64,000 nucleotides of DNA from Escherichia coli (GTDB lineage Bacteria; Pseudomonadota; Gammaproteobacteria; Enterobacterales; Enterobacteriaceae), in NCBI RefSeq assembly GCF_017348835.2, contig NZ_CP071375.1. One strand, given 5' to 3'. The stretch's first letter is position 1, and every line of letters starts with the position of its first letter. The notes under the pieces were generated by a model. That model was not told the origin of the DNA and did no database searches. It saw only the letters and a list, made by a program, of their open reading frames with translations. A program made the translations under genes and the position numbers. Shown in pieces: positions 1 to 64,000 of this stretch.

Positions 1-432
1 AGATGCCAGATAATCCACCAGTTGCTGCACGCTTTGCGGGTCGTGGCTGTTTAGCTCGAAAATCGGCTCTTCGAAGCCCGTCTCAAGCAATAACTTTCGC
101 GTTGCGGCGACGTCAGCATCTGGCATGTCCGTTTTACTGATGACGGCGATTTGCCGTTTGCTGACGCCAATATCCAGCAACCCGGCAGGCAACCGACTTT
201 CCGGGTCATTCGCGCCGTGGACATAGATCAGCATGTCCACATCCTGTAGCGTGGTAATTAAGGCGTGATACCAGCGGGGATGGCTAAAATATTCACCCGG
301 CGTATCAATATCGCCCTTATCATTAAATTCCACGGCCTGTGTTTTTCTGGCGAGGGTATAATTCCCCTGCAACGCATTAAATAACGTTGTTTTTCCTGCC
401 CCGACGGTACCCACAAACGCAATTCGTTTCAT
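1..432 (-). CDS. eutP: Ethanolamine utilisation protein EutP (N-terminal part; 3' end lies before the window start)
   Basis: Reverse translation from the CAT at 430-432 gives MKRIAFVGTVGAGKTTLFNAL..., a P-loop GTPase N-terminus matching EutP; position upstream of eutS-maeB fits K-12 order. Confidence 0.85.
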   Translation of the reverse strand, partial: MKRIAFVGTVGAGKTTLFNALQGNYTLARKTQAVEFNDKGDIDTPGEYFSHPRWYHALITTLQDVDMLIYVHGANDPESRLPAGLLDIGVSKRQIAVISKTDMPDADVAATRKLLLETGFEEPIFELNSHDPQSVQQLVDYLAS

Positions 433-444
433 GAATGCCTCGTA

Positions 445-780
445 TTAACTTTTGGTCATTTCACAAAGCGTATAATTTAATAAGCGACCTAAACCGCTGA
501 CGGTTTGTGATAACGCTTCTTCTACTGCGCCCACCGAGCCATAAATCACCAATGCACCACTGAAGCGGTCGAGAAAACCGATATGCACATCAGCGGCTTT
601 CAATGCTAAATCACCGGCGATCATCGCCGTTTCGCCAGGAGTTAGCGTCATAATGCCAATTGCGCCCGCATCCGGAACGCCGATTTTCTTCGCCAGTTCC
701 TCGCCGGGATGCGCGATGAGATGCGCCAGCGTGACCTGTTTGCCGGGCACAAATTCCTGAATGATGCGTTCTTTATCCAT
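445..780 (-). CDS. eutS: Ethanolamine microcompartment shell protein EutS
   Basis: ORF 445..852; the 111-aa product starting [10 protein letters not shown] matches K-12 EutS, so the start is placed at 780 rather than the upstream Met. Confidence 0.85.
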
Positions 781-1072
781 GAGTCGCCGCCTGTGAAAAA
801 CTTTCGTGTATCGTGACAATTTTTCGTCAGAGTAAATAACAAAATTCGGCAAGCGCGTTTAAAAGGTGAGGTAGATCACTAAGAATGGAGAGATATTCGC
901 TGTGGTGCATAAACTTTCATATACAACGCATGAATATAAATAAAATAATATCGAGATATTATATAGACTGCTTTTTTTATTATTCGCAAACTCAGTAATA
1001 AGCTTTACTAATATATTGCAGCCAAACCGCTTACCCTGAATATTCAGGGTAAGCGTGAGAGTTAAAAAAGAA

Positions 1073-3352
1073 TTACAGCGGTTGGGTTTGCGCTTCAACC
1101 ACGGCCAGCGCCACCATGTTGACGATACGACGCACCGATGCGATCGGCGTTAACACATGAACCGGTTTCGCCACGCCCATCAGCACCGGACCGACAGTCA
1201 CACCTTCCGAGCTGGAAACGCGCAGTAAGTTGTAACTAATGCGGGCAGCTTCCATGTTCGGCATCACCAGAATATTGGCAGAACCTTTCAAAGGGCTGTC
1301 CGGCATACGGTCGTTGCGAATCGCTTCCACCAGCGCTGCATCGCCGTGCATTTCACCATCAATCATCAGTTCTGGTGCACGTTCCCTGACCAGTTCCAGC
1401 GCCTGACGCATTTTGCTCGACGACGGGCAGTCAGAAGAACCAAAGTTGGAGTGCGACAACAAAGCAACGCGCGGCTCAATACCAAAACGACGGACAGTTT
1501 CTGCCGCCATCAAGGTGATCTCCGCCAGCTCTTCTGCGTCTGGTTCGTCATTGACGTAGGTATCGGCAATAAAGGTGTTACCACTCGGCAGCAGCAGCGC
1601 GTTCATTGCACCTGCGGTGTGAACGCCATCGTGATAACCAAAGACATTTTTCACCACGCTAAAATGTTCATGATAATCACCCACCGTACCGCAAATCATT
1701 GCATCGGCTTCGCCACGCTGAACCATGATCGCGCCGATCACTGTCGGGTTACTGATCAGCGCCCGCTGCGCCTGTTCCTGAGTGACGCCGCGACGCTTCA
1801 TGATCTGGAAGTATTCGGTCCAGTACTCTTTAAAGCGCGGATCGGATTCGTTATTGACGATCTCAAAATCAACGCCCGCTTTGATCTGCAAGCCCAGTTT
1901 CTGAATGCGCATTTCGATCACGTTCGGACGACCGATAAGGATCGGTTTCGCCAGTCCCAGCGTTACCAGTTCCTGAGTGGCATGCAGAACGCGCGCCTCT
2001 TCCCCTTCCGGCAGAACTACGCGCTTCGGCGCTTTGCGAGCCTGGGAGAAAATCGGCTTCATAAACAGGTTGGTTTTGTAAACGAACTCAGTCAGCTTGT
2101 CGATGTAGACGTCGAAATCAGCAATCGGACGCGTCGCCACGCCCGACTCCATCGCCGCTTTCGCGACCGCAGGAGCGATCTTAACGATCAAGCGCGGATC
2201 AAACGGTTTTGGAATGATGTATTCCGGACCAAAGCTCAGATCCTGATCGCCATACGCTGAAGCCACCACTTCGCTCTGTTCCGCATGGGCCAGTTCTGCA
2301 ATCGCGCGTACCGCCGCCAGTTTCATCTCTTCGTTGATGGCGGTTGCGCCAACGTCCAGCGCGCCACGGAAGATAAACGGGAAGCACAGGACGTTGTTCA
2401 CCTGGTTCGGGTAGTCGGAACGGCCGGTACAGATGATGGCATCCGGACGCACTTCTTTCGCCAGCGGCGGCAGAATTTCCGGTTCCGGGTTCGCCAGCGC
2501 CAGGATCATTGGTGCCCGAGCCATTTTCTTCACCATTTCCTGGGTCAGCACTTTCGGGCCGGAACAGCCGAGGAAAATATCCGCACCTTCAATCACATCA
2601 TCGAGGGTACGTTTGCCGTCATCCACCACCGCATATGCGGCTTTGGTTTCCGCCATGTTTGGCTCACGGCCCTGATAGATAACGCCTTTTGAATCGCAAA
2701 CCACGATGTTATGTTTTTGCAGACCCAACGCTACCAGCAGGTTCATACAGGCGATTGCTGCAGCACCCGCGCCGGAAACCACCATACGCACGTCAGAGAT
2801 GTTTTTCTCCACCACGCGCAAGCCGTTGAGGATGGCGGCAGTGCTGATGATTGCCGTGCCGTGCTGATCGTCGTGGAATACCGGAATATTCATCCGCTCG
2901 CGCAGTTTCTGTTCAATATAGAAACATTCTGGCGCTTTAATGTCTTCGAGGTTGATTCCGCCGAAGGTCGGTTCGAGCGCAGCGACGACTTCAATAAATT
3001 TGTCCGGGTCGAGTTCATCAACTTCAATGTCAAATACATCAATTCCGGCGAATTTCTTAAACAGAACGCCCTTGCCTTCCATCACCGGTTTGCCCGCCAG
3101 CGCGCCAATGTTGCCTAACCCCAGCACCGCCGTACCGTTAGAGATCACCGCCACCAGGTTACCGCGCGCGGTATATTTGTAGGCTTTTAACGGGTCTTTT
3201 TCGATTTCAAGACAAGGTGCGGCAACGCCTGGTGAGTAGGCCAGCGCCAGATCGCGCTGCGTTGCCAGAGGCTTGGTTGGAGAAACCTGGATTTTCCCTG
3301 GAACTGGAAATTCATGGAAATCAAGTGCACTTTGTTTTAACTGGTCATCCAT
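1073..3352 (-). CDS. maeB: NADP-dependent malic enzyme with C-terminal phosphotransacetylase-like domain
   Basis: 759-aa ORF, same length as K-12 MaeB; malic enzyme N-terminal and PTA-like C-terminal regions recognisable. Confidence 0.95.
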
Positions 3353-3640
3353 TTGGTTGTTCCTTTCACGTAACGTTCACAAATAAAGTGTGTGGGCAAC
3401 AGCCCCTGCCCACAACGTGGCGCACATTATTACCCTGCCGGAGTCTACAGACTTTGAGCAAGTCCAAACTCTCACCATTAATATAATGTTTTGGTAATAA
3501 TCCTATAACACTGATGTTACCTGCTTAATCCAGCAATACCATGCCTGTCTGCTATGCTTTTTTGATGCGTTTAGCGAAATTTCTCAGAAGTGTGAATTAA
3601 CGCACTCATCTAACACTTTACTTTTCAAGGAGTATTTCCT

Positions 3641-4591
3641 ATGAACGAGTTAGACGGCATCAAACAGTTCACCACTGTCGTGGCAGACAGCGGCGATATT
3701 GAGTCCATTCGCCATTATCATCCCCAGGATGCCACCACCAATCCTTCGCTGTTGCTCAAGGCTGCCGGATTATCACAATATGAGCATTTAATAGACGATG
3801 CTATCGCCTGGGGTAAAAAAAATGGCAAGACCCAGGAACAACAGGTGGTCGCAGCGTGTGACAAACTGGCGGTCAATTTCGGTGCTGAAATCCTCAAAAT
3901 CGTACCCGGTCGCGTGTCAACAGAAGTTGATGCACGCCTCTCTTTTGATAAAGAAAAGAGTATTGAGAAGGCGCGCCATCTGGTGGACTTGTATCAGCAA
4001 CAAGGCGTTGAGAAATCACGCATTCTGATCAAACTGGCTTCGACCTGGGAAGGAATTCGCGCGGCAGAAGAGCTGGAAAAAGAAGGTATTAACTGCAACC
4101 TGACGCTGCTGTTTTCTTTTGCACAGGCGCGGGCCTGTGCAGAAGCGGGCGTTTTTCTGATTTCGCCGTTTGTCGGGCGTATTTATGACTGGTATCAGGC
4201 ACGCAAGCCGATGGACCCGTATGTGGTGGAAGAAGATCCAGGCGTTAAATCAGTACGCAATATCTACGACTACTATAAGCAACACCACTATGAAACCATT
4301 GTGATGGGCGCGAGCTTCCGTCGCACCGAACAAATCCTCGCCTTAACCGGCTGCGATCGACTGACTATCGCACCGAATTTGCTGAAGGAGCTGCAGGAAA
4401 AAGTTTCGCCAGTGGTACGTAAATTAATCCCACCTTCTCAGACGTTCCCACGCCCAGCTCCCATGAGCGAAGCGGAGTTCCGTTGGGAGCACAATCAGGA
4501 TGCGATGGCGGTAGAAAAACTGTCTGAAGGCATTCGTCTATTCGCCGTTGATCAACGCAAACTGGAAGATCTTCTTGCCGCCAAACTATAA
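3641..4591 (+). CDS. talA: Transaldolase A
   Basis: 316-aa ORF with transaldolase motifs; sits between maeB and tktB as in K-12. Confidence 0.95.
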
Positions 4592-54508: not shown

Positions 54509-54601
54509 CGGTTACCTTCTCCACTTTCACAGAACATAACGGCACTTTGAACCGCCCCGGAAATCCTGGAGACTAAACTCCCTGAGAAAGAGGTAAACAG
54601 G

Positions 54602-54928
54602 ATGACTAAAAATACTCGTTTTTCCCCCGAAGTCCGTCAGCGGGCGATTCGTATGGTTCTGGAAAGTCAGGATGAATATGACTCACAGTGGGCGGCAATT
54701 TGTTCCATTGCCCCAAAGATTGGCTGTACGCCGGAGACTCTGCGTGTCTGGGTTCGCCAGCATGAGCGGGATACCGGGAGTGGTGATGGTGGACTCACCA
54801 CCGCTGAACGTCAGCGTCTGAAAGAGCTGGAACGTGAAAATCGTGAACTGCGCCGCAGTAACGATATCCTTCGCCAGGCTTCCGCTTATTTTGCGAAGGC
54901 GGAGTTCGACCGCCTCTGGAAAAAATAA
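54602..54928 (+). CDS. IS3-family transposase OrfA (HTH DNA-binding part)
   Basis: 108-aa [33 protein letters not shown]... with a leucine-zipper-like C-terminus; A-rich slippery run (ggaaaaaataatg) at its 3' end. Confidence 0.85.
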
Positions 54929-55815
54929 TGCCACTGCTGGATAAGCTGCGTGAGCAGTACGGGGTCGGACCGGTATGCAGCGAACTGCATATTGCCCCGT
55001 CAACGTATTACCATTGTCAGCAACAGCGACATCATCCGGATAAACGCAGTGCCCGTGCGCAGCACGATGACTGGCTGAAGAAAGAGATACAGCGCGTATA
55101 CGATGAAAATCACCAGGTATACGGTGTGCGTAAAGTCTGGCGTCAGTTGTTACGGGAAGGTATCAGAGTGGCCAGATGCACTGTGGCACGTCTCATGGCA
55201 GTTATGGGACTTGCCGGTGTTCTCCGGGGTAAAAAGGTCCGCACTACCGTCAGCCGGAAAGCCGTTGCCGCATGCGACCGCGTAAACCGTCAGTTCGTGG
55301 CAGAACGTCCAGACCAGTTGTGGGTGGCTGATTTTACCTGGGTAAGCACATGGCAGGGCTTCGTTTATGTGGCGTTCATCATTGATGTGTTCGCCGGATA
55401 CATCGTGGGATGGCAGGTCTCATCATCCATGGAAACAACATTCGTGCTGGATGCACTGGAGCAGGCGTTGTGGGCCCGTCGGCCGTCCGGCACAATCCAT
55501 CACAGTGATAAAGGTTCTCAGTATGTATCGCTGGCCTACACGCAGCGGCTTAAGGAAGCCGGATTACTGGCATCAACAGGGAGTACTGGCGACTCGTATG
55601 ACAACGCGATGGCTGAGAGCATCAATGGTCTTTACAAAGCGGAGGTAATACACCGTAAGAGCTGGAAAAACCGGACAGAAGTGGAACTGGCCACACTAAC
55701 GTGGGTGGACTGGTATAACAATCGACGATTGCTGGAAAGGCTGGGCCATATTCCTCCGGCAGAAGCAGAAAAAGCTTATTATGCTTCCATCGGAAATAAT
55801 GATCTGGCAGCCTGA
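54928..55815 (+). CDS. IS3-family transposase OrfB (DDE integrase catalytic domain)
   Basis: 295-aa ORF in the -1 frame relative to OrfA; rve/DDE core recognisable (WVADFTWVST ... DKGSQYVS ... DNAMAES). Confidence 0.85.
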   Translation: MPLLDKLREQYGVGPVCSELHIAPSTYYHCQQQRHHPDKRSARAQHDDWLKKEIQRVYDENHQVYGVRKVWRQLLREGIRVARCTVARLMAVMGLAGVLRGKKVRTTVSRKAVAACDRVNRQFVAERPDQLWVADFTWVSTWQGFVYVAFIIDVFAGYIVGWQVSSSMETTFVLDALEQALWARRPSGTIHHSDKGSQYVSLAYTQRLKEAGLLASTGSTGDSYDNAMAESINGLYKAEVIHRKSWKNRTEVELATLTWVDWYNNRRLLERLGHIPPAEAEKAYYASIGNNDLAA

Positions 55816-56045
55816 GTTCACAGATAAAACACTCTCCAGGAAACCCGGGGCGGTTCAAACTCGTACAGTGGCGTACCACTGGGGTCCATTCCTTCAAGTC
55901 TCAGGGAAGCCTCTGCTTTGCGGAAGCCCTCAATGCGTAACCGTGTATAGGGAGTCCTAGACATGTTTTTCCTTTGAGTTGCAGGAGTGAGGTTCGCTCA
56001 GTGAAAGCGTCAGCTCACGCAACCTCGTTAACTGACGCGCGTGAT

Positions 56046-57446
56046 TCAAGATTTATTATTACCCGATAAGCTATCACCGGCAAAATCATCATGTTCGCGG
56101 TTATCCCGACGAGTAGCTGTTTGTTTACTTATCTGAGTCGCCAACTCCTCTCCAATAGTTTGTTGGGCACGAGAAGAACTGCTACTTCGCTTCATTCTCT
56201 GGTACTCAGCAGCTCCGTTAGCCATGCTGCTTCCCATATGGCTTGCCATGCGGCCAGCACGCGAGAATGAAGCAAACCCCTGACTTCCTCCACTGGCGCT
56301 ACCTGAACTGCTCCCTGCAGACGAACCACTGTAACCGCCTGAGGTTTGGCCTCCAGAAGTATCTACAGAACCGGTATCTTCCCCGCCGCCAAATCCTCCA
56401 CCGGAACCGCCTCCGCTGCCTGAACCAGATTCTTCGTCCATGGCAGCTTGCGCAGACTCGAATGCTGCCTTTAATGCTGAAGCTCCGCCGCTGACTTGAG
56501 CTGATGCCCCCATTGCCATTGCTCCAGCACCGCTGATGGCAGTAGCGGCTGCGCCGGTAATCATACCCGCCCCAAATCCACCAATCCCTTGTAAAGAAGC
56601 CCCTCCTACAACACCTGATAACAACAGTGGTAGCTTATTAGTTAATACTAACAGGATAATTGACGCCAGAAGCAAAACTATAAGACTATTAAGATCAGGA
56701 ACATCATCTTTAATAAGAGAAAAATATTGATCTATAAATGATTGTCCAATCCCAATAATTAATGTCATCGTGAATAATTGAATGCCAATCGATAAAACAG
56801 TTCGTAAGTAATTAATTGCTATATCAGAGGTCCATTTCGAACCACCAAACCCAAGCAATATAACTCCTGCATAACATAACACCCATGCAGAAACCAACAT
56901 GATTAGCATATTTATCGCTATAAGGGACATCACTACCAAAACGATTATCGCGACTGTTATCATAATGGTGGATATCATTGGCGACCAAATTGATGCGGCT
57001 GAACTGATCTTGGTTAATATCGCAAACGCCATATCAACTATGCTTGAGGGAGAAATACCAATACTTATTTCTAAAGCGTTTGCTGCAAGTTGTCTCATTG
57101 AATTAATTATGGATTGCGATATGGATGGACCGTTGATTAAAAGATAATAAAAAAAACCAATGACGGCAAAAAAGCGAACTATTTCAGCAAGTACCCCTGT
57201 CAACCCTTCCCCTTGCATCGCCATCATACCAAATGTCCAAACCATACTTATTAATACCAGCCCCCAGAAGAGCCAATTTGCATAGTCAGCAATTACTGCT
57301 GTCCATGTACTGGCTACTTGTTGAAACTTATCTAATAAAGTATCAAGTAGCCCGCTACTATCTAATTGACCAGCATAGGCATTAATAGAAAAGAAAAGTA
57401 TGATACCTAAAAAGGTGAGCTTACTTACTATTTTCATGATTACCAT
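56046..57446 (-). CDS. trbL: TrbL/VirB6-family conjugative transfer membrane protein
   Basis: 466-aa ORF with signal peptide, several TM helices and a long Gly/Ser-rich hydrophilic C-terminal tail, the TrbL/VirB6 architecture; synteny with trbJ and a small lipoprotein gene upstream. Confidence 0.65.
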   Translation of the reverse strand: MVIMKIVSKLTFLGIILFFSINAYAGQLDSSGLLDTLLDKFQQVASTWTAVIADYANWLFWGLVLISMVWTFGMMAMQGEGLTGVLAEIVRFFAVIGFFYYLLINGPSISQSIINSMRQLAANALEISIGISPSSIVDMAFAILTKISSAASIWSPMISTIMITVAIIVLVVMSLIAINMLIMLVSAWVLCYAGVILLGFGGSKWTSDIAINYLRTVLSIGIQLFTMTLIIGIGQSFIDQYFSLIKDDVPDLNSLIVLLLASIILLVLTNKLPLLLSGVVGGASLQGIGGFGAGMITGAAATAISGAGAMAMGASAQVSGGASALKAAFESAQAAMDEESGSGSGGGSGGGFGGGEDTGSVDTSGGQTSGGYSGSSAGSSSGSASGGSQGFASFSRAGRMASHMGSSMANGAAEYQRMKRSSSSSRAQQTIGEELATQISKQTATRRDNREHDDFAGDSLSGNNKS

Positions 57447-57631
57447 TCTCGTTTAGGGCTTGGTTTATTATTACTCCGTAGAGCACATTTATCGTATTTA
57501 TGTTCATCAAATTTATTATCTGGCATCGATAAACAATCTTTATCATTTTTATCGCAAGAACATATGGCCAATAAACTGATCAGAATAAATACAATCAAAA
57601 AATTATCTTTCATTCTGCGTTTCCTCACCAA
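57440..57631 (-). CDS. Small lipoprotein in the TrbK (IncP entry-exclusion) position
   Basis: 63-aa ORF with a hydrophobic leader and Cys-containing lipobox-like motif (LLAICSCDK); overlaps the trbJ stop and trbL start, as trbJ-trbK-trbL does in IncP plasmids. Confidence 0.45.
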   Translation of the reverse strand: MVRKRRMKDNFLIVFILISLLAICSCDKNDKDCLSMPDNKFDEHKYDKCALRSNNKPSPKREW

Positions 57632-58419
57632 ATTCGCTTCGGGCTTGGTGTATTCTCTCCAGCTAACGCTTTTTCATCAGCGGCTATCTGTTGTGATTCT
57701 TTATCTGCCTGAGCCTGTGCCAGTGTTGCTGCAGCGTTTTGTTGGGCTACCAGAAGTGAGCGGATTTGCAGTAACTGATTTGTCTGTGCACTGGCAAGCT
57801 GGTTTGCCGCCTGAATAGCTTCCATTTGCCCTTGTGCGCCGCTTGCCTGAGTTTGTAATTCGGCAAGATTATCAGCATCGCTCTGCAGGGTGTTCTGCTG
57901 CTCGTCAATTACCTTAAATACTGCGTCATTGGCCTTTTTACGCGCCCCTGAGCTATTCTGTTCAGCTTCACGCAGTGCACTAATTTCAGACGCGGTACAT
58001 TCAACATTGCTGTTAAAGCAAGACGATGTCCTGTAGTAGTTAACATCCTGATAGCGTTTCAGGTACGCATCGAGACTCCCGGCCTGATTCTTGTAGTAAT
58101 TAAGGGTATCCTGCACCTGCAACAATTTATTAATTGTTGAATTTGCCTGGTCCCAGATATAGGCCGCAGGAGCTACGGTGTTCTGCAGCATGTTTTCATA
58201 CTGCTGCAGCTGCGTCTGGTACTGCTGGATTTGTTTAGTCACAGCCTGAACGTTGTTAACTGCGCTGATTGTGGTCTGAACCACATTAGTGCCATCAATA
58301 ACGGGAATTCCGGCCTTCACCGGTAATGCCATGACGGACGCCACGAAAGGAACTATTAAAGCTTTTTTAGCGGCTAAAATCCCTCTTTGTGATGAAACCA
58401 CTCGGAACTTTAAATTCAT
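57625..58419 (-). CDS. trbJ: TrbJ/VirB5-family conjugative transfer protein
   Basis: 264-aa ORF with signal peptide and Gln/Ala-rich coiled-coil stretches typical of TrbJ/VirB5 minor pilus/adhesin proteins. Confidence 0.6.
   Translation of the reverse strand: MNLKFRVVSSQRGILAAKKALIVPFVASVMALPVKAGIPVIDGTNVVQTTISAVNNVQAVTKQIQQYQTQLQQYENMLQNTVAPAAYIWDQANSTINKLLQVQDTLNYYKNQAGSLDAYLKRYQDVNYYRTSSCFNSNVECTASEISALREAEQNSSGARKKANDAVFKVIDEQQNTLQSDADNLAELQTQASGAQGQMEAIQAANQLASAQTNQLLQIRSLLVAQQNAAATLAQAQADKESQQIAADEKALAGENTPSPKRIW
58365..58379. promoter_or_regulatory. KorB-operator-like palindrome TTTTAGCGGCTAAAA (copy 1, inside the 5' end of trbJ)
   Basis: Perfect inverted repeat containing TTTAGCGGCTAAA, identical to the IncP-1 KorB operator consensus TTTAGC(G/C)GCTAAA. 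Confidence 0.6.
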
Positions 58420-58499
58420 TTGCTCACCTCTTTTTCAACAGATTAGTAATATTTAACACTCTGTCTGTTAACAGACGCAGGTATATAGGAAACCACACA

Positions 58500-58865
58500 T
58501 TATTTATCCAAGATTTTATCCATAATGTTCCTTAGTTCTTGCCGAGTTGATTCTATTTTCGCAAGCAAGGTTCTTATCAGTGTGGGTGAAAAATCAACTG
58601 TTCGAGGATCATTTGCGAGCCATAATTTAAGTAATCCGCCAAGTCTTCCAAGATCAGCATTTACTCGGCTAAGTTCATTAACCTGTTTTATATCTACGAT
58701 AGAATCAACCTGATAACCCATTGCAACTCTACGAACAAAACAGGCAACACTTAATCCAGATGCTTCTGCATTTTCTTGGATGAGAATTTTTTCTTCGGGT
58801 AAACAATAAACTTTTATTGGCGTACTATTTTTTCTAGTCTGAGTAACTTTCATATAGCTCTCCAT
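58500..58865 (-). CDS. MobC-family relaxosome accessory protein (ribbon-helix-helix)
   Basis: 121-aa ORF; VYCLPEEKILIQENAEASGLSVACFVRRVAMG ... LSRVNADLGRLGGLLKLW fits the MobC-family pattern; lies directly beside a candidate oriT region. Confidence 0.55.
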   Translation of the reverse strand: MESYMKVTQTRKNSTPIKVYCLPEEKILIQENAEASGLSVACFVRRVAMGYQVDSIVDIKQVNELSRVNADLGRLGGLLKLWLANDPRTVDFSPTLIRTLLAKIESTRQELRNIMDKILDK

Positions 58866-58939
58866 ACAGGCGGTAGCCTGGCAGCCTCGCAGAGCAGGAC
58901 GCCCTTGAGCCGCGATGCGGCGAATAGGGAGTGGTAAAG

Positions 58940-58995
58940 TTGGAACACCGTAGCGGTGGGCCCACTTTACATGTCCTGCCCTGCAGTTGCCGTTG
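58940..58995. promoter_or_regulatory. Candidate origin of transfer (oriT-like region)
   Basis: 10-bp perfect palindrome GTGGGCCCAC (58956-58965) immediately followed by CTTTACATGTCCTGCCCTGCAG, which resembles my recollection of the IncP nic region (core TCCTGCCC); adjacent to the MobC-like gene. Confidence 0.35.
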
Positions 58996-59252
58996 TATAT
59001 CTGTGCACGACAATGTGTATTTCAGTGTACAGGATGTGTTTTCTTAGCGTATTAATATAGGATTACTGGAGTAAATTTCTGCAGCAAATGTGTTTTTTGC
59101 AAGGAAACTATATTTCTCCCTTTTGAAAATGACCTTTAGTAGTTATAAATGGACGTCCACCAACTGTATTTATGTTTCGATATATTGTAAGAAGTCTTTC
59201 ATTTTCCGATGCACTTTTTTACTTACCTTGTCAGAGCATGTGCATTGCAGAT

Positions 59253-59265
59253 TTTAGCGGCTAAA
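59253..59265. promoter_or_regulatory. KorB-operator-like palindrome (copy 2)
   Basis: aTTTTAGCGGCTAAAATc; exact match to the IncP-1 KorB operator core, in the 675-bp intergenic region. Confidence 0.6.
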
Positions 59266-59501
59266 ATCTGCCTCCCTATGCCTAAAGCTAGGGGCGTACC
59301 TCATATGTCATAAAATCTACCTCAAGTGTCAATATACCAAACGTGTAAGTAATCTCTTCTTCTGGCGTACAACCATCGGTCTTTGGCCGATTCTAGATTT
59401 GAAAGCGCCTGCTCAGGCAGGTGATTTCAAAGCCTGAATATACTGGTTGATCCTGAATAACCTGCAAAGGAGTTAAAAAATCAGGCCTCTGTAGCACACT
59501 G

Positions 59502-59562
59502 GCGGGCCGTTACAGCACATCACCGGGCCGTAACGACACGTTACCGGGCCGTTGTAGCTCGT
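59502..59562. repeat. Three direct iteron-like repeats with 21-bp periodicity
   Basis: CGGGCCGT recurs at 59503, 59524 and 59545 with similar flanks (..TACAGCACAT / ..AACGACACGT / ..TGTAGCTCG); the third overlaps the stop codon of the putative initiator gene. Confidence 0.5.
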
Positions 59563-60314
59563 TTTATCCTAGAATTTTGTATCTCAATGCCAATCGCTAG
59601 AAATTGTTTGCTATCTTCTTTTAATCTCCGCCGATAGTTACGTAATGTCATATTATTGGTACCTTCACCACTGACAGCTAAAATTAATGTATCAATATGC
59701 CAGCCGCCTTTAGGATCGTGCTTATGTGTTAATATATGACGTGCAACTGCTTGGCTAATACCATGCTGGAGACGAGCAATAGGACCTGGATCATGATGAA
59801 AATGCAAATCTCGCTTCAACAACATTACCAATGCAACACCCAAGCGTACTCTCCATAGGTTACGTTCACCACCAGTTAGAGGATTACGCCTAGTCATTGG
59901 TGAGGGTACGACATGGTCAATTAAACCGCCTAGAATGCAATAACCGTTTTTTTCTAAATCTGGCGTTACTATTTCAACAGTTGCCACACGTAGATCAACG
60001 AGTAGTTTTTTAATTCGATCATAACTGTATTGTGCATCGGATAGAGTTCGGCGTACTTTCGCTGGATCTACTAATAACTCGATTCCTCCATCAGAAATTT
60101 CTCGACGTTTCTCGGCCACATAGAGCATTGTTTCCACAATATCCGCATGACGTTGTCCTAGTCTTCCGGTAACTCGACAACGACCAAAACTAGTCTCCAT
60201 CCACTGCCCCTTCAGCGCCAAGGGACGTTGACTTGGTTGGTACAGAATGACTCTAGCCTGCAGAGCTGTGCTAGTAGGTGTAACTTTATTACCAGTTATC
60301 ATTTTCTGCACCAC
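59541..60314 (-). CDS. Hypothetical protein, possible replication initiator (RepC-like by position)
   Basis: 257-aa basic protein directly downstream of the RepA-like helicase gene and ending in the iteron-like repeats; assignment rests on gene order, not on recognised motifs. Confidence 0.35.
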   Translation of the reverse strand: MVQKMITGNKVTPTSTALQARVILYQPSQRPLALKGQWMETSFGRCRVTGRLGQRHADIVETMLYVAEKRREISDGGIELLVDPAKVRRTLSDAQYSYDRIKKLLVDLRVATVEIVTPDLEKNGYCILGGLIDHVVPSPMTRRNPLTGGERNLWRVRLGVALVMLLKRDLHFHHDPGPIARLQHGISQAVARHILTHKHDPKGGWHIDTLILAVSGEGTNNMTLRNYRRRLKEDSKQFLAIGIEIQNSRIKRATTAR

Positions 60315-60330
60315 TCAATGAAGACATACA

Positions 60331-61146
60331 TTATTTTGCTATTTGTTTTTTATTCTTCGATTTGAGTTGCGTTATCCTTAATACTCCTCCCTCATGTCTC
60401 TGTAACCAACGTTCTGGCGTACGTTCTCCATAATTTGCTTTATTTATTCCAAATCTAACAAATTGACCTCGAACATCATCAGAAATATCATACGTCTTCG
60501 CTTCTAAGGCGGTCATGCCCGCCAGATAAGATTGCCACCGTATATTATCAACCAGGACGCTACTACCCCTGCTTGCCTGCTGTATATCACCAACTCCCAT
60601 CGTGGCAGAGCCTTTGTTTGAATGGTGTAGAAATATAATCGAACACCCTGTATCAGCAGCAATACCTTCTAGCTTTCCAATGACTTTGGACATTGCTCCG
60701 CTATTATTTTCATCTTCCTGGTGGAAACGGCGAAGAGTATCCAAAATTATTAACCGTCTACTTTTTGAAATCTCATTAATCAAGTTGCTCCAACCTGGCG
60801 AGAAAATATTTGGACACTTCCCTACCAAAGGTTCGACAAGTAGCTTATCAGCAACAATCTGCTGCTGACGTGCTGTTAGATATTTTCCCAAAGCATATAG
60901 ACGATGGTGAATGATGGTTGCAGAGTCCTCCACAGGTAAATATGCCACTAACCCCGTTGGATATTCACCAAAGTTTAAAAGATCTACACCACAAGTAATC
61001 TGCACAGCCAGTTGCAATGCCAGCATTGACTTTCCAACGCCTCCCGGAGAAACAATCGCTCCGATAGTACCAATAGCCAAATTAGGCAAGACGTAATCAA
61101 TTGGTTGCGGCTTAGCTTCAAATGCTTCCATTATGTTCAATGACAT
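60331..61146 (-). CDS. RecA-fold AAA_25 ATPase, RSF1010 RepA-like replicative helicase
   Basis: 271-aa ORF with Walker A (SPGGVGKSMLALQLA) and Walker B-like (RLIILDTL) motifs; size and motif layout as in IncQ RepA. Confidence 0.6.
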   Translation of the reverse strand: MSLNIMEAFEAKPQPIDYVLPNLAIGTIGAIVSPGGVGKSMLALQLAVQITCGVDLLNFGEYPTGLVAYLPVEDSATIIHHRLYALGKYLTARQQQIVADKLLVEPLVGKCPNIFSPGWSNLINEISKSRRLIILDTLRRFHQEDENNSGAMSKVIGKLEGIAADTGCSIIFLHHSNKGSATMGVGDIQQASRGSSVLVDNIRWQSYLAGMTALEAKTYDISDDVRGQFVRFGINKANYGERTPERWLQRHEGGVLRITQLKSKNKKQIAK

Positions 61147-61151
61147 TGCTG

Positions 61152-61403
61152 TTACCTACCTAAAACAATACCGGGTCTGGCTGCTTTAAACATTGCTGAT
61201 TTACGATCCGCAATCCACTGTTCCACTTCGGATAACTGCCATGCAACATTTCGGCTCGTAAGTGCTATACGGCGAGGAAACTCGCCTCGCTGTTCAAGGT
61301 TATAAATAGTGCGGGCTGACAATGGGATCATTTCCAGAAGTGTTTTTCTGTTAATGAGCGTGCTATGTGCCTTTGTTTGCATCTGCCTTCCTCCTGTTTC
61401 CAA
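61152..61403 (-). CDS. alpA: AlpA-family prophage/island transcriptional regulator (excisionase-like)
   Basis: 83-aa ORF with the AlpA HTH signature (LSARTIYNLEQRGEFPRRIALTSRNVAWQLSEVEQWI). Confidence 0.7.
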   Translation of the reverse strand: METGGRQMQTKAHSTLINRKTLLEMIPLSARTIYNLEQRGEFPRRIALTSRNVAWQLSEVEQWIADRKSAMFKAARPGIVLGR

Positions 61404-61459
61404 TCAGGCCTATACAATGCCAAGCATTACCACTTGCTAAAACCTATTCATTGGCTAAA

Positions 61460-62431
61460 ATGGTTGACATGAAAATTACTATCTGGGAAGGCTGTGACCT
61501 CACAGTTGCAGCTGCAATTAAATTATTTGTAGAGCGTAGTTCTCCGTACTCCATATTTTCACGGAGGTATCCAATACTGCGTCTCATACAGGAAGTTATT
61601 GATCCAGCAGTAGCTGATTATGTAAATTCCCTGCCACCAAGTCATAAAGACTACATTTCTGGAGTAAATCTAGGATTTAGTGAAGTACTTAAAAAATTGG
61701 GTTTAAACGTCGTAGTACAGGCACAAAGACTTCTTTTGCGTAATTTCGTTCTGACTTTAGATCAACAAACTTCTCTTGATAAATGCTTTACCGCTACGAT
61801 TGAGTCTCTTATTGAATTAGTCAGTGAATGCGCATCCAAGCGGCCGAAGAAATCCTCTCCTGCAAAAGGAGTAACTATAAATTCACAGCGTAAGCTCGGT
61901 TATTGCGAGTTCTGCGGTAATCTAACCGAATTTTCCAAGTTGATCAGTGAGATATCAGAATTTGTTGCTAACGATAATGAGTTCCCCGTTCATGAAAAAC
62001 AGGTCCTTAGTCATCGATATTGTTCTGACCATAGGCCCAAACTCACCAATGGTCTATGGAATCCCAAATACAGACAAGGAAAGCGGTCTCTCGAACAGTT
62101 CAATAAAGAATTAATAAGGCTTAGACGGCAATGCGCTAAACCTCATAAAGCTAACGCAAACACAGGGGATATATTGATTGATACATATTTTCATGAGTGG
62201 ATGCAGGGTCAAACTTTAACCCCAGCAGATCTAGATAAACTTAGGAATATCGCCAGACGAATGGTTGACTCCAAATTCACTGATACTAAGAAAAAAATAA
62301 TCATATTAAAACACCAAGGTTTTAACCAGTTTGAAACCGCACAGGTTTTAGAAAAAAATCACTACACAACTATGACAAAGCAGGCTGTGTCCAAGGCCTT
62401 AGCGTCTGTGAGGAAAGAATTTTATATTTAA
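61460..62431 (+). CDS. Hypothetical protein with Cys/His cluster and C-terminal helix-turn-helix
   Basis: ORF track starts at 61367, overlapping alpA; a more plausible start is the ATG at 61460 (MVDMKITIW). Contains CEFCGN ... HRYCSDH and a C-terminal HTH-like segment; no family recognised. Confidence 0.45.
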   Translation: MVDMKITIWEGCDLTVAAAIKLFVERSSPYSIFSRRYPILRLIQEVIDPAVADYVNSLPPSHKDYISGVNLGFSEVLKKLGLNVVVQAQRLLLRNFVLTLDQQTSLDKCFTATIESLIELVSECASKRPKKSSPAKGVTINSQRKLGYCEFCGNLTEFSKLISEISEFVANDNEFPVHEKQVLSHRYCSDHRPKLTNGLWNPKYRQGKRSLEQFNKELIRLRRQCAKPHKANANTGDILIDTYFHEWMQGQTLTPADLDKLRNIARRMVDSKFTDTKKKIIILKHQGFNQFETAQVLEKNHYTTMTKQAVSKALASVRKEFYI

Positions 62432-62856
62432 AATAGTATATCCACGAGCTATTATGGTGGCAGTTTAAGTCTTAATACCATCCACTTTATTGAATTATAA
62501 CCAGCCACTTACGAAGGTTTTTCGCGATTACCCTGCTTCAAATTGATGATTTTGAAAATACAGTATTATAGTTTATTGTTTGTAGCGCAGCTGTAAGCGT
62601 TATGCAAAATGGATCACAGTGATACGACCTCACCAGTAAATCACTGAAGCCGATCTGTAATGACATAGAACGAATTGGTTTTATGGTTATGCAATGGCTC
62701 ATCCCCTTACTTGTCCCTGACCATAAAAAGCATTCGCTTTCCTGAAAGCAAGTCTAAGCCAAGGGGCGTTTACAGTTGTCTTATCTTGACTCATTAGGTA
62801 CTGGCTTAATGATTAGAATCATGTCGGTGGCATTTAGGTCCAAATATGCCCAAAAT

Positions 62857-62869
62857 TTTAGCAGCTAAA
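62857..62869. promoter_or_regulatory. KorB-operator-like palindrome (copy 3, central A variant)
   Basis: aTTTTAGCAGCTAAAATt; same arms with a central A instead of G/C. Confidence 0.5.
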
Positions 62870-62900
62870 ATTCGTCTTCTCATGTAGGGTCAAGAAGCTT

Positions 62901-63098
62901 ATGACTAAACCTATTGATTATGTGAATTACCTTGTGAGTAATACTCGTAGGATGGAATCTTCCAAAACTCTGACAATTCACTCTGAATGCATGGTAACAA
63001 AGAACAGTTTAAACCATGGTCTGTTCAGCGTTAAATTTCTCAAGATAGACTTCCATTTCGCGAGTCCACCTAGGGGTAGGTACCGAGGTGATCATTAG
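62901..63098 (+). CDS. Small hypothetical ORF (65 aa), doubtful
   Basis: Begins about 30 bp after KorB-like copy 3 but overlaps the 3' end of the convergent 209-aa ORF; weak ribosome-binding site. Confidence 0.2.
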   Translation: MTKPIDYVNYLVSNTRRMESSKTLTIHSECMVTKNSLNHGLFSVKFLKIDFHFASPPRGRYRGDH

Positions 63099-63638
63099 CC
63101 AAGGAAACCACCATACAAGCATGAAGAGTAACATAAGCGGTGCGATCATTTCGGCCGAAGAATGAGAAACTATATACATAATGAATAATATTAGTAGAAC
63201 TGTGTTTACAATCTGACCTACCAGAAAAAGACGCCAGCGAAAACAATGCCATTTCCTGTTGAACACAATCCGTCCATCCCGTTCTTCGAGCCAGTTACGC
63301 CACGGCTTGAGATAACCAGCCCGCAACCCATAACGATCACACATTATTACAGCCAAATCCTGCAGCCGATAATTATACAAGCCTGTGAGCCGATAAAGGC
63401 TGCGCTGACGAAGCTCACGCTTTGCCAGACGGACCGCATTTTTATTCAAATATGGCTGTGTCAGCATTTGCTCTAGCCGGCGCTTCCTAAGATTGAGTAG
63501 TCCACGAAATACACTTCCAGATTCAGCATTAATTACTCTGTGACGAACTACACCGAGTGCAATATAGATACACAGCAATAGCCAGCCGGTCTTAGGGTAT
63601 TGATTCATCCATTGTATAATTACAGACAACTCAGGCAC
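63009..63638 (-). CDS. Hypothetical membrane protein (209 aa)
   Basis: Two to three predicted TM helices separated by an Arg-rich loop; KorB-like copy 4 lies about 55 bp upstream of its start; no family recognised. Confidence 0.5.
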   Translation of the reverse strand: MPELSVIIQWMNQYPKTGWLLLCIYIALGVVRHRVINAESGSVFRGLLNLRKRRLEQMLTQPYLNKNAVRLAKRELRQRSLYRLTGLYNYRLQDLAVIMCDRYGLRAGYLKPWRNWLEERDGRIVFNRKWHCFRWRLFLVGQIVNTVLLILFIMYIVSHSSAEMIAPLMLLFMLVWWFPWLMITSVPTPRWTREMEVYLEKFNAEQTMV

Positions 63639-63692
63639 TTTTATTTTTCCTTTTTATGCAATCCAGATAAAACCAGTAAAGATTCAGTAAAT

Positions 63693-63705
63693 TTTAGCGG
63701 CTAAA
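63693..63705. promoter_or_regulatory. KorB-operator-like palindrome (copy 4)
   Basis: aTTTTAGCGGCTAAAATt, between the 209-aa membrane protein gene and the integrase gene. Confidence 0.6.
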
Positions 63706-63761
63706 ATTGCTCTCCTGGCGTAGAAAAAAGAAGCACACCAACTTAACTTACTGATTATTAA

Positions 63762-64000
63762 CTACTTACTAGTCCATTCATCAATCATATTCGCCCAATC
63801 TTGTAGCATCTCAGCCCTCTGCTCACGATATTCTGCCTTGTTATAAACAGCTCGTACCCCTTTTTGTTCATGGGCAAGGCTCTTCTCAATCCAGTCAGTA
63901 TTGTACCCGGCCTCATGTAGCAAGGTGCTGGCTGTACGCCGTAAGTCATGGGGACCAAACTTAGGCAACAACTCCCCTTCTTTCTGAGCCAGGCGATACG
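63762..64000 (-). CDS. int: Tyrosine recombinase (P4-type integrase), C-terminal part; the gene continues past the window end
   Basis: Frame open to the window edge; C-terminal sequence ...GPHDLRRTASTLLHEAGYNTDWIEKSLAHEQKGVRAVYNKAEYREQRAEML contains the catalytic H-x-x-R and Tyr region of phage-type integrases. Confidence 0.75.
   Translation of the reverse strand, partial: YRLAQKEGELLPKFGPHDLRRTASTLLHEAGYNTDWIEKSLAHEQKGVRAVYNKAEYREQRAEMLQDWANMIDEWTSK

Follow-up and report, generated by a model that had tools for sequence, protein, structure and literature searches.

The window analysed here, a stretch of 64,000 nucleotides from an Escherichia coli chromosome (NCBI RefSeq assembly GCF_017348835.2, contig NZ_CP071375.1), carries an element of the PIME1 type whose trbJ gene contains, within the codons of the TrbJ leader, a palindrome corresponding to the operator (OB) of the IncP-1 plasmid protein KorB. 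We consider it likely that this site, designated OB1, is a true KorB operator equivalent to the intragenic trbJ site of IncP-1 plasmids, that it is one of four orphan OBs in an element devoid of korB, incC and korA, and that it is probably used only when an IncP plasmid is present. KorB is the ParB protein of IncP-1 plasmids: it loads at OB, closes as a clamp dependent on cytidine triphosphate (CTP), slides for more than 1 kb and partners IncC in partition, and it represses strongly once locked at promoters by KorA or TrbA. OBs of this intragenic kind, at a distance of over 1 kb from any known promoter, are termed class III. To our knowledge, E. coli itself has no KorB.

OB1 is a perfect 15-bp palindrome, TTTTAGCGGCTAAAA, and its 13-bp core is an exact match to the IncP-1 KorB operator consensus, TTTAGCSGCTAAA. 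On the minus strand the site and the bases that follow read ATT TTA GCC GCT AAA AAA GCT, in frame in trbJ, and encode I-L-A-A-K-K-A, precisely as claimed in a preliminary description of this DNA, which had also proposed that a KorB-type operator is superimposed on these leader codons. Both points hold, the latter on the evidence of the consensus core and of positional orthology with the trbJ gene of plasmid RP4. Indeed, OB1 shares 15 of 16 bases with ATTTTAGCGGCTAAAA, a stretch of the oligonucleotide used as in vitro KorB substrate, and the three further OBs of the element (OB2 to OB4) contain this stretch, OB3 differing at the central base only. Being matched by sequence to the site used in KorB biochemistry, OB1 is very probably a KorB operator.

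The intragenic trbJ OB is in fact a long-known sequence feature of IncP-1 plasmids, and the window resembles RP4 (RK2) in having the same 13-mer in the same gene, in the same frame (xxT-TTA-GCS-GCT-AAA) and at the same place in the n-region of the leader. In RP4 the 13-mer lies 23 nt after the ATG (record CP152305.1, 26687-26699) and encodes V-L-A-A-K, the gene beginning ATG AAG AAG CTC GCT AAG AAT GTT TTA GCC GCT AAA (MKKLAKNVLAAK). An in-frame OB is likewise found 14-23 nt after the ATG in pJJ1886_4 (a low-GC IncP-1-like E. coli plasmid), the IncP-1beta plasmid pBS64, a Variovorax plasmid, p7ME01, a Methylotuvimicrobium plasmid, the mobilizable pMATVIM-7 and a GIsul2-like fragment in an IncI1 plasmid, while the site in pDS1 trbJ has a central T. 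The preliminary description had offered two alternatives for OB1, and this shared intragenic 13-mer favours the one in which the site would act from inside the gene, as in IncP plasmids. Unlike in IncP-1 plasmids, trbJ in the window is chromosomal, follows traJ rather than trbI and has its OB 41 nt from the ATG (versus 14-23 nt), and neither korB nor incC nor korA accompanies it on the element.

The other alternative was that the real trbJ start lies downstream, with the site in a promoter or 5' untranslated region. The 264-residue open reading frame scores 379 bits against the NCBIfam TrbJ equivalog NF010452 (cut-off 286), with residues 12-264 aligned, and a strong Shine-Dalgarno sequence, AAGAGGTGA, precedes its ATG at 58419 by 5 bases. 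The leader, MNLKFRVVSSQRGILAAKKALIVPFVASVMALPVKA followed by GIPVIDG, resembles by eye a Sec signal peptide, with a basic n-region, a hydrophobic core and a cleavage-like site between VKA and G. It is true that this leader is 9 residues longer than usual and that in one relative (L051) the nearest OB sits upstream of trbJ, both of which would suit a later start. However, the site is in frame in 29 of the 31 trbJ genes of the related islands described below, and the only in-frame starts after OB1, a GTG at codon 26 and an ATG at codon 30, would yield a protein without the signal peptide, for which reason we reject a downstream start as extremely improbable. In megablast comparisons the window trbJ is 86% identical in nucleotide sequence to trbJ of IncP-1-like enterobacterial plasmids, and this homology ends exactly at 58379, the outer edge of the palindrome, the 13 codons upstream being unrelated; OB1 thus coincides with a module boundary.

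The comparison of TrbJ homologues that the preliminary description had proposed as a check reveals that the DNA of the palindrome is conserved to a far greater extent than the protein would demand. All of the 39 distinct trbJ genes with an in-frame site, from plasmids and islands alike, have TTA-GCS-GCT-AAA, whereas elsewhere in the same genes TTA makes up 4.5% of leucine codons (41/907), GCT 18% of alanine codons and AAA 30% of lysine codons. Given L-A-A-K and the codon usage of each gene, the probability of this string is ~1e-3 per gene, a figure whose product over the 39 genes is no P-value, as they are not phylogenetically independent. The fixation of a TTA that is so rare elsewhere in these genes points to selection on the DNA. 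The leader residues ahead of the site differ from gene to gene in both number and identity, its offset from the ATG being 14-41 nt, and in plasmids of Xylella, Neisseria and Pasteurella trbJ lacks the palindrome and L-A-A-K alike, which indicates that the peptide follows the DNA site and not the reverse. Selection thus maintains the OB as DNA, and L-A-A-K is merely what it happens to encode. One could argue, since the site is in a translated region, that what is conserved is a hairpin in the mRNA or the L-A-A-K peptide motif; however, the 5' region of the mRNA folds no better than shuffled sequences (z=-0.86), with the palindrome not paired to itself, the synonymous positions are fixed, and identical copies occur in non-coding DNA, so that we find this explanation scarcely credible.

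These non-coding copies are found in the window itself. The motif TTTAGCNGCTAAA occurs four times in the 64 kb versus 0.01 expected, none of 100 shuffles reaching four copies, and all four lie between 58366 and 63705, i.e. within 5.4 kb inside the last 5.7 kb of the window. OB1, OB2 and OB4 match the consensus exactly, and OB3 has a central A that leaves the symmetry intact. A perfect palindrome of 25 bp, GCAGATTTTAGCGGCTAAAATCTGC (59247-59271), is centred on OB2, whose position recurs in six relatives (L014-L016, L032, L050, L057), while that of OB4 recurs in two (L015, L016). Several dispersed OBs are common to this element, to RP4, which has 10 exact OBs including those in trbJ, in the traJ-traI gap and in traF, and to pJJ1886_4, which has 14 in 50 kb with the same AT flanks. 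Despite its four OBs, the window element has no ParB, KorB, IncC or KorA in a Pfam scan, nor does the annotation of an intact relative (L002) list any.

The arrangement extends over the whole family of elements. An alignment of 14 relatives of the RepA helicase was used to fetch 77 loci from contigs representing one genome per species, the source genera including Dickeya, Phytobacter, Zobellella, Vibrio, Photobacterium, Marinobacter, Pseudomonas, Bordetella and Nitrosomonas. These loci hold 79 exact OBs in 1.11 Mb, against ~0.07 under a uniform model by our arithmetic, and 78 of the 79 adjoin core genes at recurrent positions. One such position is the 5' end of trbJ, where the OB is in frame in all but two of the 31 genes mentioned above. 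Another is the 35-70 bp gap between the convergent int (or cargo) and luxR genes, 8-65 bp past the luxR stop, in which the OB alone is conserved among 23 loci. Relatives without luxR have two OBs 200-360 bp upstream of alpA, and the remaining positions are ~280-340 bp past the 257-residue gene, equivalent to OB2, and 23-70 bp past traJ, equivalent to the OB of the RP4 traJ-traI gap. With tblastn (E<=1e-5), RP4 KorB, IncC, KorA and TrbI have no match in the 77 loci including 10 kb on either side. One locus, L093, which resembles PIME1MmNCTC12028 in gene content, carries three OBs, one at the end of luxR, one in the traJ-traI gap and one within trbJ, and no ParB family is present among its called genes.

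A distinct scenario results from the luxR-less relatives (L017, 9395-9660; L018, L020, L025, L046, L054), in which the two OBs upstream of alpA are accompanied by KorA-like and trbB-promoter-like motifs. The former, GTTTAGCTTAAC, is one mismatch from the KorA operator, the consensus of which recovers exactly seven RP4 sites. The latter, TTTCGATATATCGAAA, is a perfect-palindrome version of TTTCGGTATATCGTTT, a conserved sequence that RP4 and pJJ1886_4 have at their trbB promoters, and since the -10 of the RP4 trbB promoter is reportedly overlapped by the TrbA operator we infer that TTTCGATATATCGAAA is a putative TrbA operator. Judged by these motifs, the luxR-less relatives carry the full operator set of the IncP-1 global repressors and encode none of the repressors.

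A plausible source of KorB for E. coli is the group of pJJ1886_4-type plasmids (82 records with 86% identical trbJ), whose IncP-1 backbone includes korA-incC-korB. Their KorB is 60% identical to that of RP4 and retains T211 and R240, the residues that reportedly determine KorB specificity, as Khare and colleagues are said to have found in 2004. In a plasmid-free cell the four OBs of the element would be empty, and upon arrival of an IncP-1-type plasmid its KorB would load at them as the sliding clamp described above. The oriT/traJ-trbJKL unit is bracketed by OB2 and OB1, at distances of ~280 bp upstream and ~600 bp downstream from the promoter region near oriT, and KorB could therefore reach this region from both sides. 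In RP4, the OB of the traJ-traI gap represses traGp. The mating-pore and exclusion genes of the element (VirB5, exclusion and VirB6) would in this way be tied to the KorB-repressed trb/tra regulon of the helper. In addition, the four OBs would make the excised, replicating, multicopy element both a substrate for and a competitor in the KorB/IncC partition system of the helper. Occupancy of the four sites and its consequences are what the sequence leads us to expect, and on balance we lean towards the view that the element makes functional use of the KorB of its helper in some way.

Helper dependence of these elements is documented in a recent preprint (bioRxiv 10.64898/2026.01.12.698999), according to which excision of PIME1 is triggered by the IncP plasmids pB10 and pKJK5 only, and not by IncN, IncX or IncL/M plasmids, and int, alpA and luxR are all needed for induction. 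This was shown for two members other than the window element; PIME1MmNCTC12028 is the relaxase-encoding PIME1 studied. The abundance of pB10 falls upon replication of PIME1, segregation of the minimal replicon appears to be poor, and the preprint calls both the inducer and the cause of the reduced helper abundance unknown. Titration of KorB by the set of OBs would fit this drop. We put forward, as a tentative proposal to which we give rather less than even weight, that PIME-type elements use the orphan OBs as their channel both for sensing IncP-1 plasmids and for exploiting them. Detection would consist in KorB acting at the int/luxR-junction OB, or at the OBs upstream of alpA, to trigger or time excision, and exploitation in the same OBs hitching the excised element to the partition system of the helper while titrating KorB, which would lower helper copy number. 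That KorB itself is the inducer is possible but somewhat doubtful, because a repressor needs an extra step in order to induce: KorB might block convergent read-through into luxR at the terminator-less int/luxR junction, or might displace silencing proteins.

Several points weigh against a role of OB1 in the response to IncP plasmids. KorB is a repressor, so that occupancy alone leaves helper-induced excision unexplained, and KorB alone represses only weakly at a distance. The partner sites seen in the luxR-less relatives are wanting here: the window element has no KorA operator (GTTTAGCTAAAC, up to 2 mismatches), and the TrbA-like palindrome TTCGATATATCGAA has a single 2-mismatch match in the window (59176-59189), no better than chance. 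According to the same preprint (bioRxiv 10.64898/2026.01.12.698999), pB10 and pKJK5 induce an E. coli element yet do not mobilize it. Relatives of the GIsul2 type carry the trbJ OB only, which could be mere inheritance, and recent exchange with plasmids, as the 86% identity of trbJ would allow, could refresh this OB with no selection in the element. Finally, the copy in the window is a remnant, as described below, and whatever OB1 does is likely moot in this strain.

Some of these points are shared with the view that OB1 is an inert relic, which arrived with a trbJKL module of IncP-plasmid origin and serves no function where it now lies. The OB is ancestral in plasmid trbJ and may be retained alone, as in the GIsul2-type elements. 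Also, as cited in later papers, Chiu and Thomas (2004, FEMS Microbiol Lett 241:163) are reported to have noted IncP-1alpha remnants, including an oriT region, in the chromosomes of P. aeruginosa and S. flexneri and to have read them as traces of past plasmid integration. A relic is nevertheless hard to reconcile with island trbJ genes that, at 48-59% protein identity to the window TrbJ, keep in 29 of 31 cases all 12 specified bases, the rare TTA included, or with additional OBs at non-coding, element-specific positions where nothing but the OB is conserved, and we judge it improbable. Still less probable, in our view, is that the main binder is a protein of the element itself and not plasmid KorB. 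The element does encode two or three DNA-binding proteins of unassigned specificity (the LuxR-like regulator, AlpA and perhaps the 257-residue protein), and luxR and alpA are essential for induction according to the preprint; however, OBs are still present in the luxR-less relatives and in those without the 257-residue gene, the 13-mer is identical to the KorB operator of RP4 and pJJ1886_4, and BLASTP detects no similarity of the LuxR-like protein to RP4 KorA or TrbA.

A purely centromere-like role, in which the OBs would serve only for hitching the excised element to the IncC/KorB partition system and for helper destabilisation, with no transcriptional effect at trbJ, has more to commend it, although we hold it to be unlikely as the whole explanation. 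KorB is after all a ParB, the fall in helper abundance and the poor segregation of the minimal replicon would both follow the same logic, and a precedent exists in SGI1 (Nucleic Acids Res 2024, PMC10954446). Like the window element, SGI1 is a mobilizable island without Par proteins that carries copies of the ParB site of its helper, in that case an IncC plasmid; its parS-like sites are near helper-controlled promoters, and the helper is destabilised when SGI1 replicates. Binding, stabilisation and incompatibility are demonstrated for SGI1, whereas KorB loading is predicted for the window element, and the two differ in the ParB and its site and in that one site of the window element is within a coding region. 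However, partition by itself requires no fixed positions relative to genes, and in the luxR-less relatives the alpA promoter region combines OBs with operators resembling those of KorA and TrbA, which points to control of transcription.

The proposed use of helper KorB by a family of elements appears to be undescribed so far, in the sense of a conserved deployment of orphan OBs across helper-dependent elements. We found no open-access paper linking KorB operators to PIME, GIsul2 or 'IncP-island' elements: the words KorB and operator are absent from the PIME preprint (bioRxiv 10.64898/2026.01.12.698999), and KorB and its operators are likewise unmentioned in the GIsul2 paper (PMC5704250). According to papers that cite their work, Chiu and Thomas (2004, FEMS Microbiol Lett 241:163) reported chromatin immunoprecipitation of RP4 KorB on an operator in the P. 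putida KT2440 chromosome. The orphan OBs provide a concrete molecular link between widespread chromosomal mobilizable elements, which carry defence systems and in the case of GIsul2 also resistance genes, and IncP helpers, and they make KorB an obvious inducer candidate. If the elements do detect and exploit IncP-1 plasmids in the manner proposed, KorB would be the missing helper inducer of ~1,100 elements in ~100 species, and if titration of KorB lowers IncP copy number this would bear on plasmid persistence and on the spread of resistance. At the level of the gene, OB1 is a clean case of dual coding: in plasmids and islands whose TrbJ proteins have only about half of their residues in common, four codons of the secretion leader are held fixed by a palindrome that binds a protein.

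Table. Positions in the window of the KorB operators and of the genes and sites of the element.
Feature	Position	Strand	Remarks
OB1, KorB operator	58365..58379, core 58366-58378	.	trbJ codons 14-18 (I-L-A-A-K); 15-bp perfect palindrome
OB2	59251..59267, core 59253-59265	.	between 257-aa gene and oriT/traJ
OB3	62854..62872, core 62857-62869	.	central base A; 19-bp palindrome between convergent luxR-like and 209-aa genes
OB4	63690..63708, core 63693-63705	.	19-bp palindrome, 55 bp upstream of 209-aa start, 57 bp past int stop
Tyrosine integrase (int), 3' end	63762..64000	-	runs off window; guaA next in intact relative
209-aa hydrophobic protein gene (cargo)	63009..63638	-	between OB3 and OB4
Regulator annotated 'LuxR family'	61460..62431	+	divergent from alpA; pairing is a PIME1-subfamily hallmark
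alpA	61152-61382	-	
RepA-type helicase	60331-61146	-	
257-aa gene	59541-60314	-	
RP4-like oriT	58920..59010; counterpart of RP4 nic region 58955-58981	-	local alignment to RP4 traJ-traK intergenic region
traJ, NikA-like relaxosome accessory protein	58500..58865	-	Pfam PF21983, E=8e-23; RefSeq annotation of relative
trbJ (VirB5-type, P-type), 264 aa	57625..58419	-	signal-peptide-like leader; open reading frame list, NCBIfam NF010452
trbK-like small lipoprotein gene	57440-57631	-	
trbL	56046-57446	-	PF04610
IS3-family insertion sequence (IS)	54546..55858	+	108-aa and 295-aa reading frames; replaces distal element end, yfgH and yfgI

From right to left the element comprises int, OB4, the 209-residue gene, OB3, the luxR-like gene, alpA, the RepA helicase, the 257-residue gene, OB2, oriT, traJ, trbJ with OB1, the trbK-like gene and trbL. 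Upstream of traJ, its oriT (GGGCAGGACATGTAAAGTGGGCCCACCGCTACGGTGTTCC) aligns with that of RP4 (GGGCAGGATAGGTGAAGTAGGCCCACCCGCGAGCGGGTGTTCC). By gene content and location the element belongs to the PIME1 subfamily: it has the gene set by which the preprint defines PIME1, and it resembles the PIME family, GIsul2 and the 'IncP islands' (Genes 2017, PMC5704250) in the gene set int-luxR/alpA-repA-traJ-trbJKL, the location at guaA and the IncP-like oriT. Unlike those elements as described, however, the window copy is truncated by an IS, and its distal end is lost. The location at guaA, a gene that is itself beyond the end of the window, is inferred from L002, an intact relative of 13.7 kb and 98.8% identity between yfgI and guaA, in which int is followed by guaA and which shares the flanking ppk-ppx-pdeF-yfgG with the window. 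With respect to L002, the IS substitutes 5.7 kb comprising yfgH, yfgI, a HigA antitoxin, a recombinase pseudogene, a DEAD/DEAH helicase and DUF2290, and as the distal end is replaced this copy is a remnant that is probably unable to excise.

The region 55900-64000 is 100% identical to strain PE164, and the traJ-trbJ segment is present in 109 of 5,426 complete E. coli genomes, always on the chromosome; megablast against plasmids matched trbJ only, which shows that the element is not a plasmid segment. Pfam and NCBIfam return nothing for the 257-residue, 209-residue and LuxR-like proteins, and scans of the window with promoter and terminator consensus sequences gave no enrichment over shuffles. 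From the 257-residue gene to traJ, the alignment with four close relatives is 86% conserved throughout. Two copies of GT(T/A)ACGGCCCG, at 59484-59545, lie at and just past the stop of the 257-residue gene and may be iterons of a replication origin, which the preprint puts downstream of the replication genes.

A number of minor observations concern the vicinity of the OBs and their counterparts on plasmids. In RP4, a second intragenic OB is inside traF (L003, 46307-46319; traF 46058-46591), and in the IncI1 plasmid pHUSEC411like (L006) positions 1-3777 constitute a GIsul2-like repC-trbJ-trbK-trbL segment with the trbJ OB included. The GCAGAT flank of OB2 also precedes the OB upstream of trbB in pJJ1886_4 (L092, 23271). 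Between OB2 and oriT, TTCGATATATTGTA at 59176-59189 is a half-match to the trbB-promoter-like palindrome and is kept in three close relatives, and in the 80-bp gap between traJ and trbJ there is a perfect 14-bp palindrome, GTCTGTTAACAGAC (58463-58476), conserved in the Dickeya and Phytobacter relatives (L014, L015).

The 209-residue gene is flanked by two direct repeats of 57 nt (62842-62898 and 63678-63734; 72% identical) with one OB each, whereas most relatives have a single OB in the int/luxR gap; it looks as if cargo had inserted at an OB-bearing junction, with duplication of the junction. As a consequence of the central A of OB3, the minus strand at 62855-62883 contains TGCTAAAAT, which has the form of an extended -10 and is preceded at 17 nt by ATGAGA. 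This putative promoter, a consensus match only, would direct antisense transcription toward the 3' end of the luxR-like gene, and the TG is absent where the central base in relatives is G or C.

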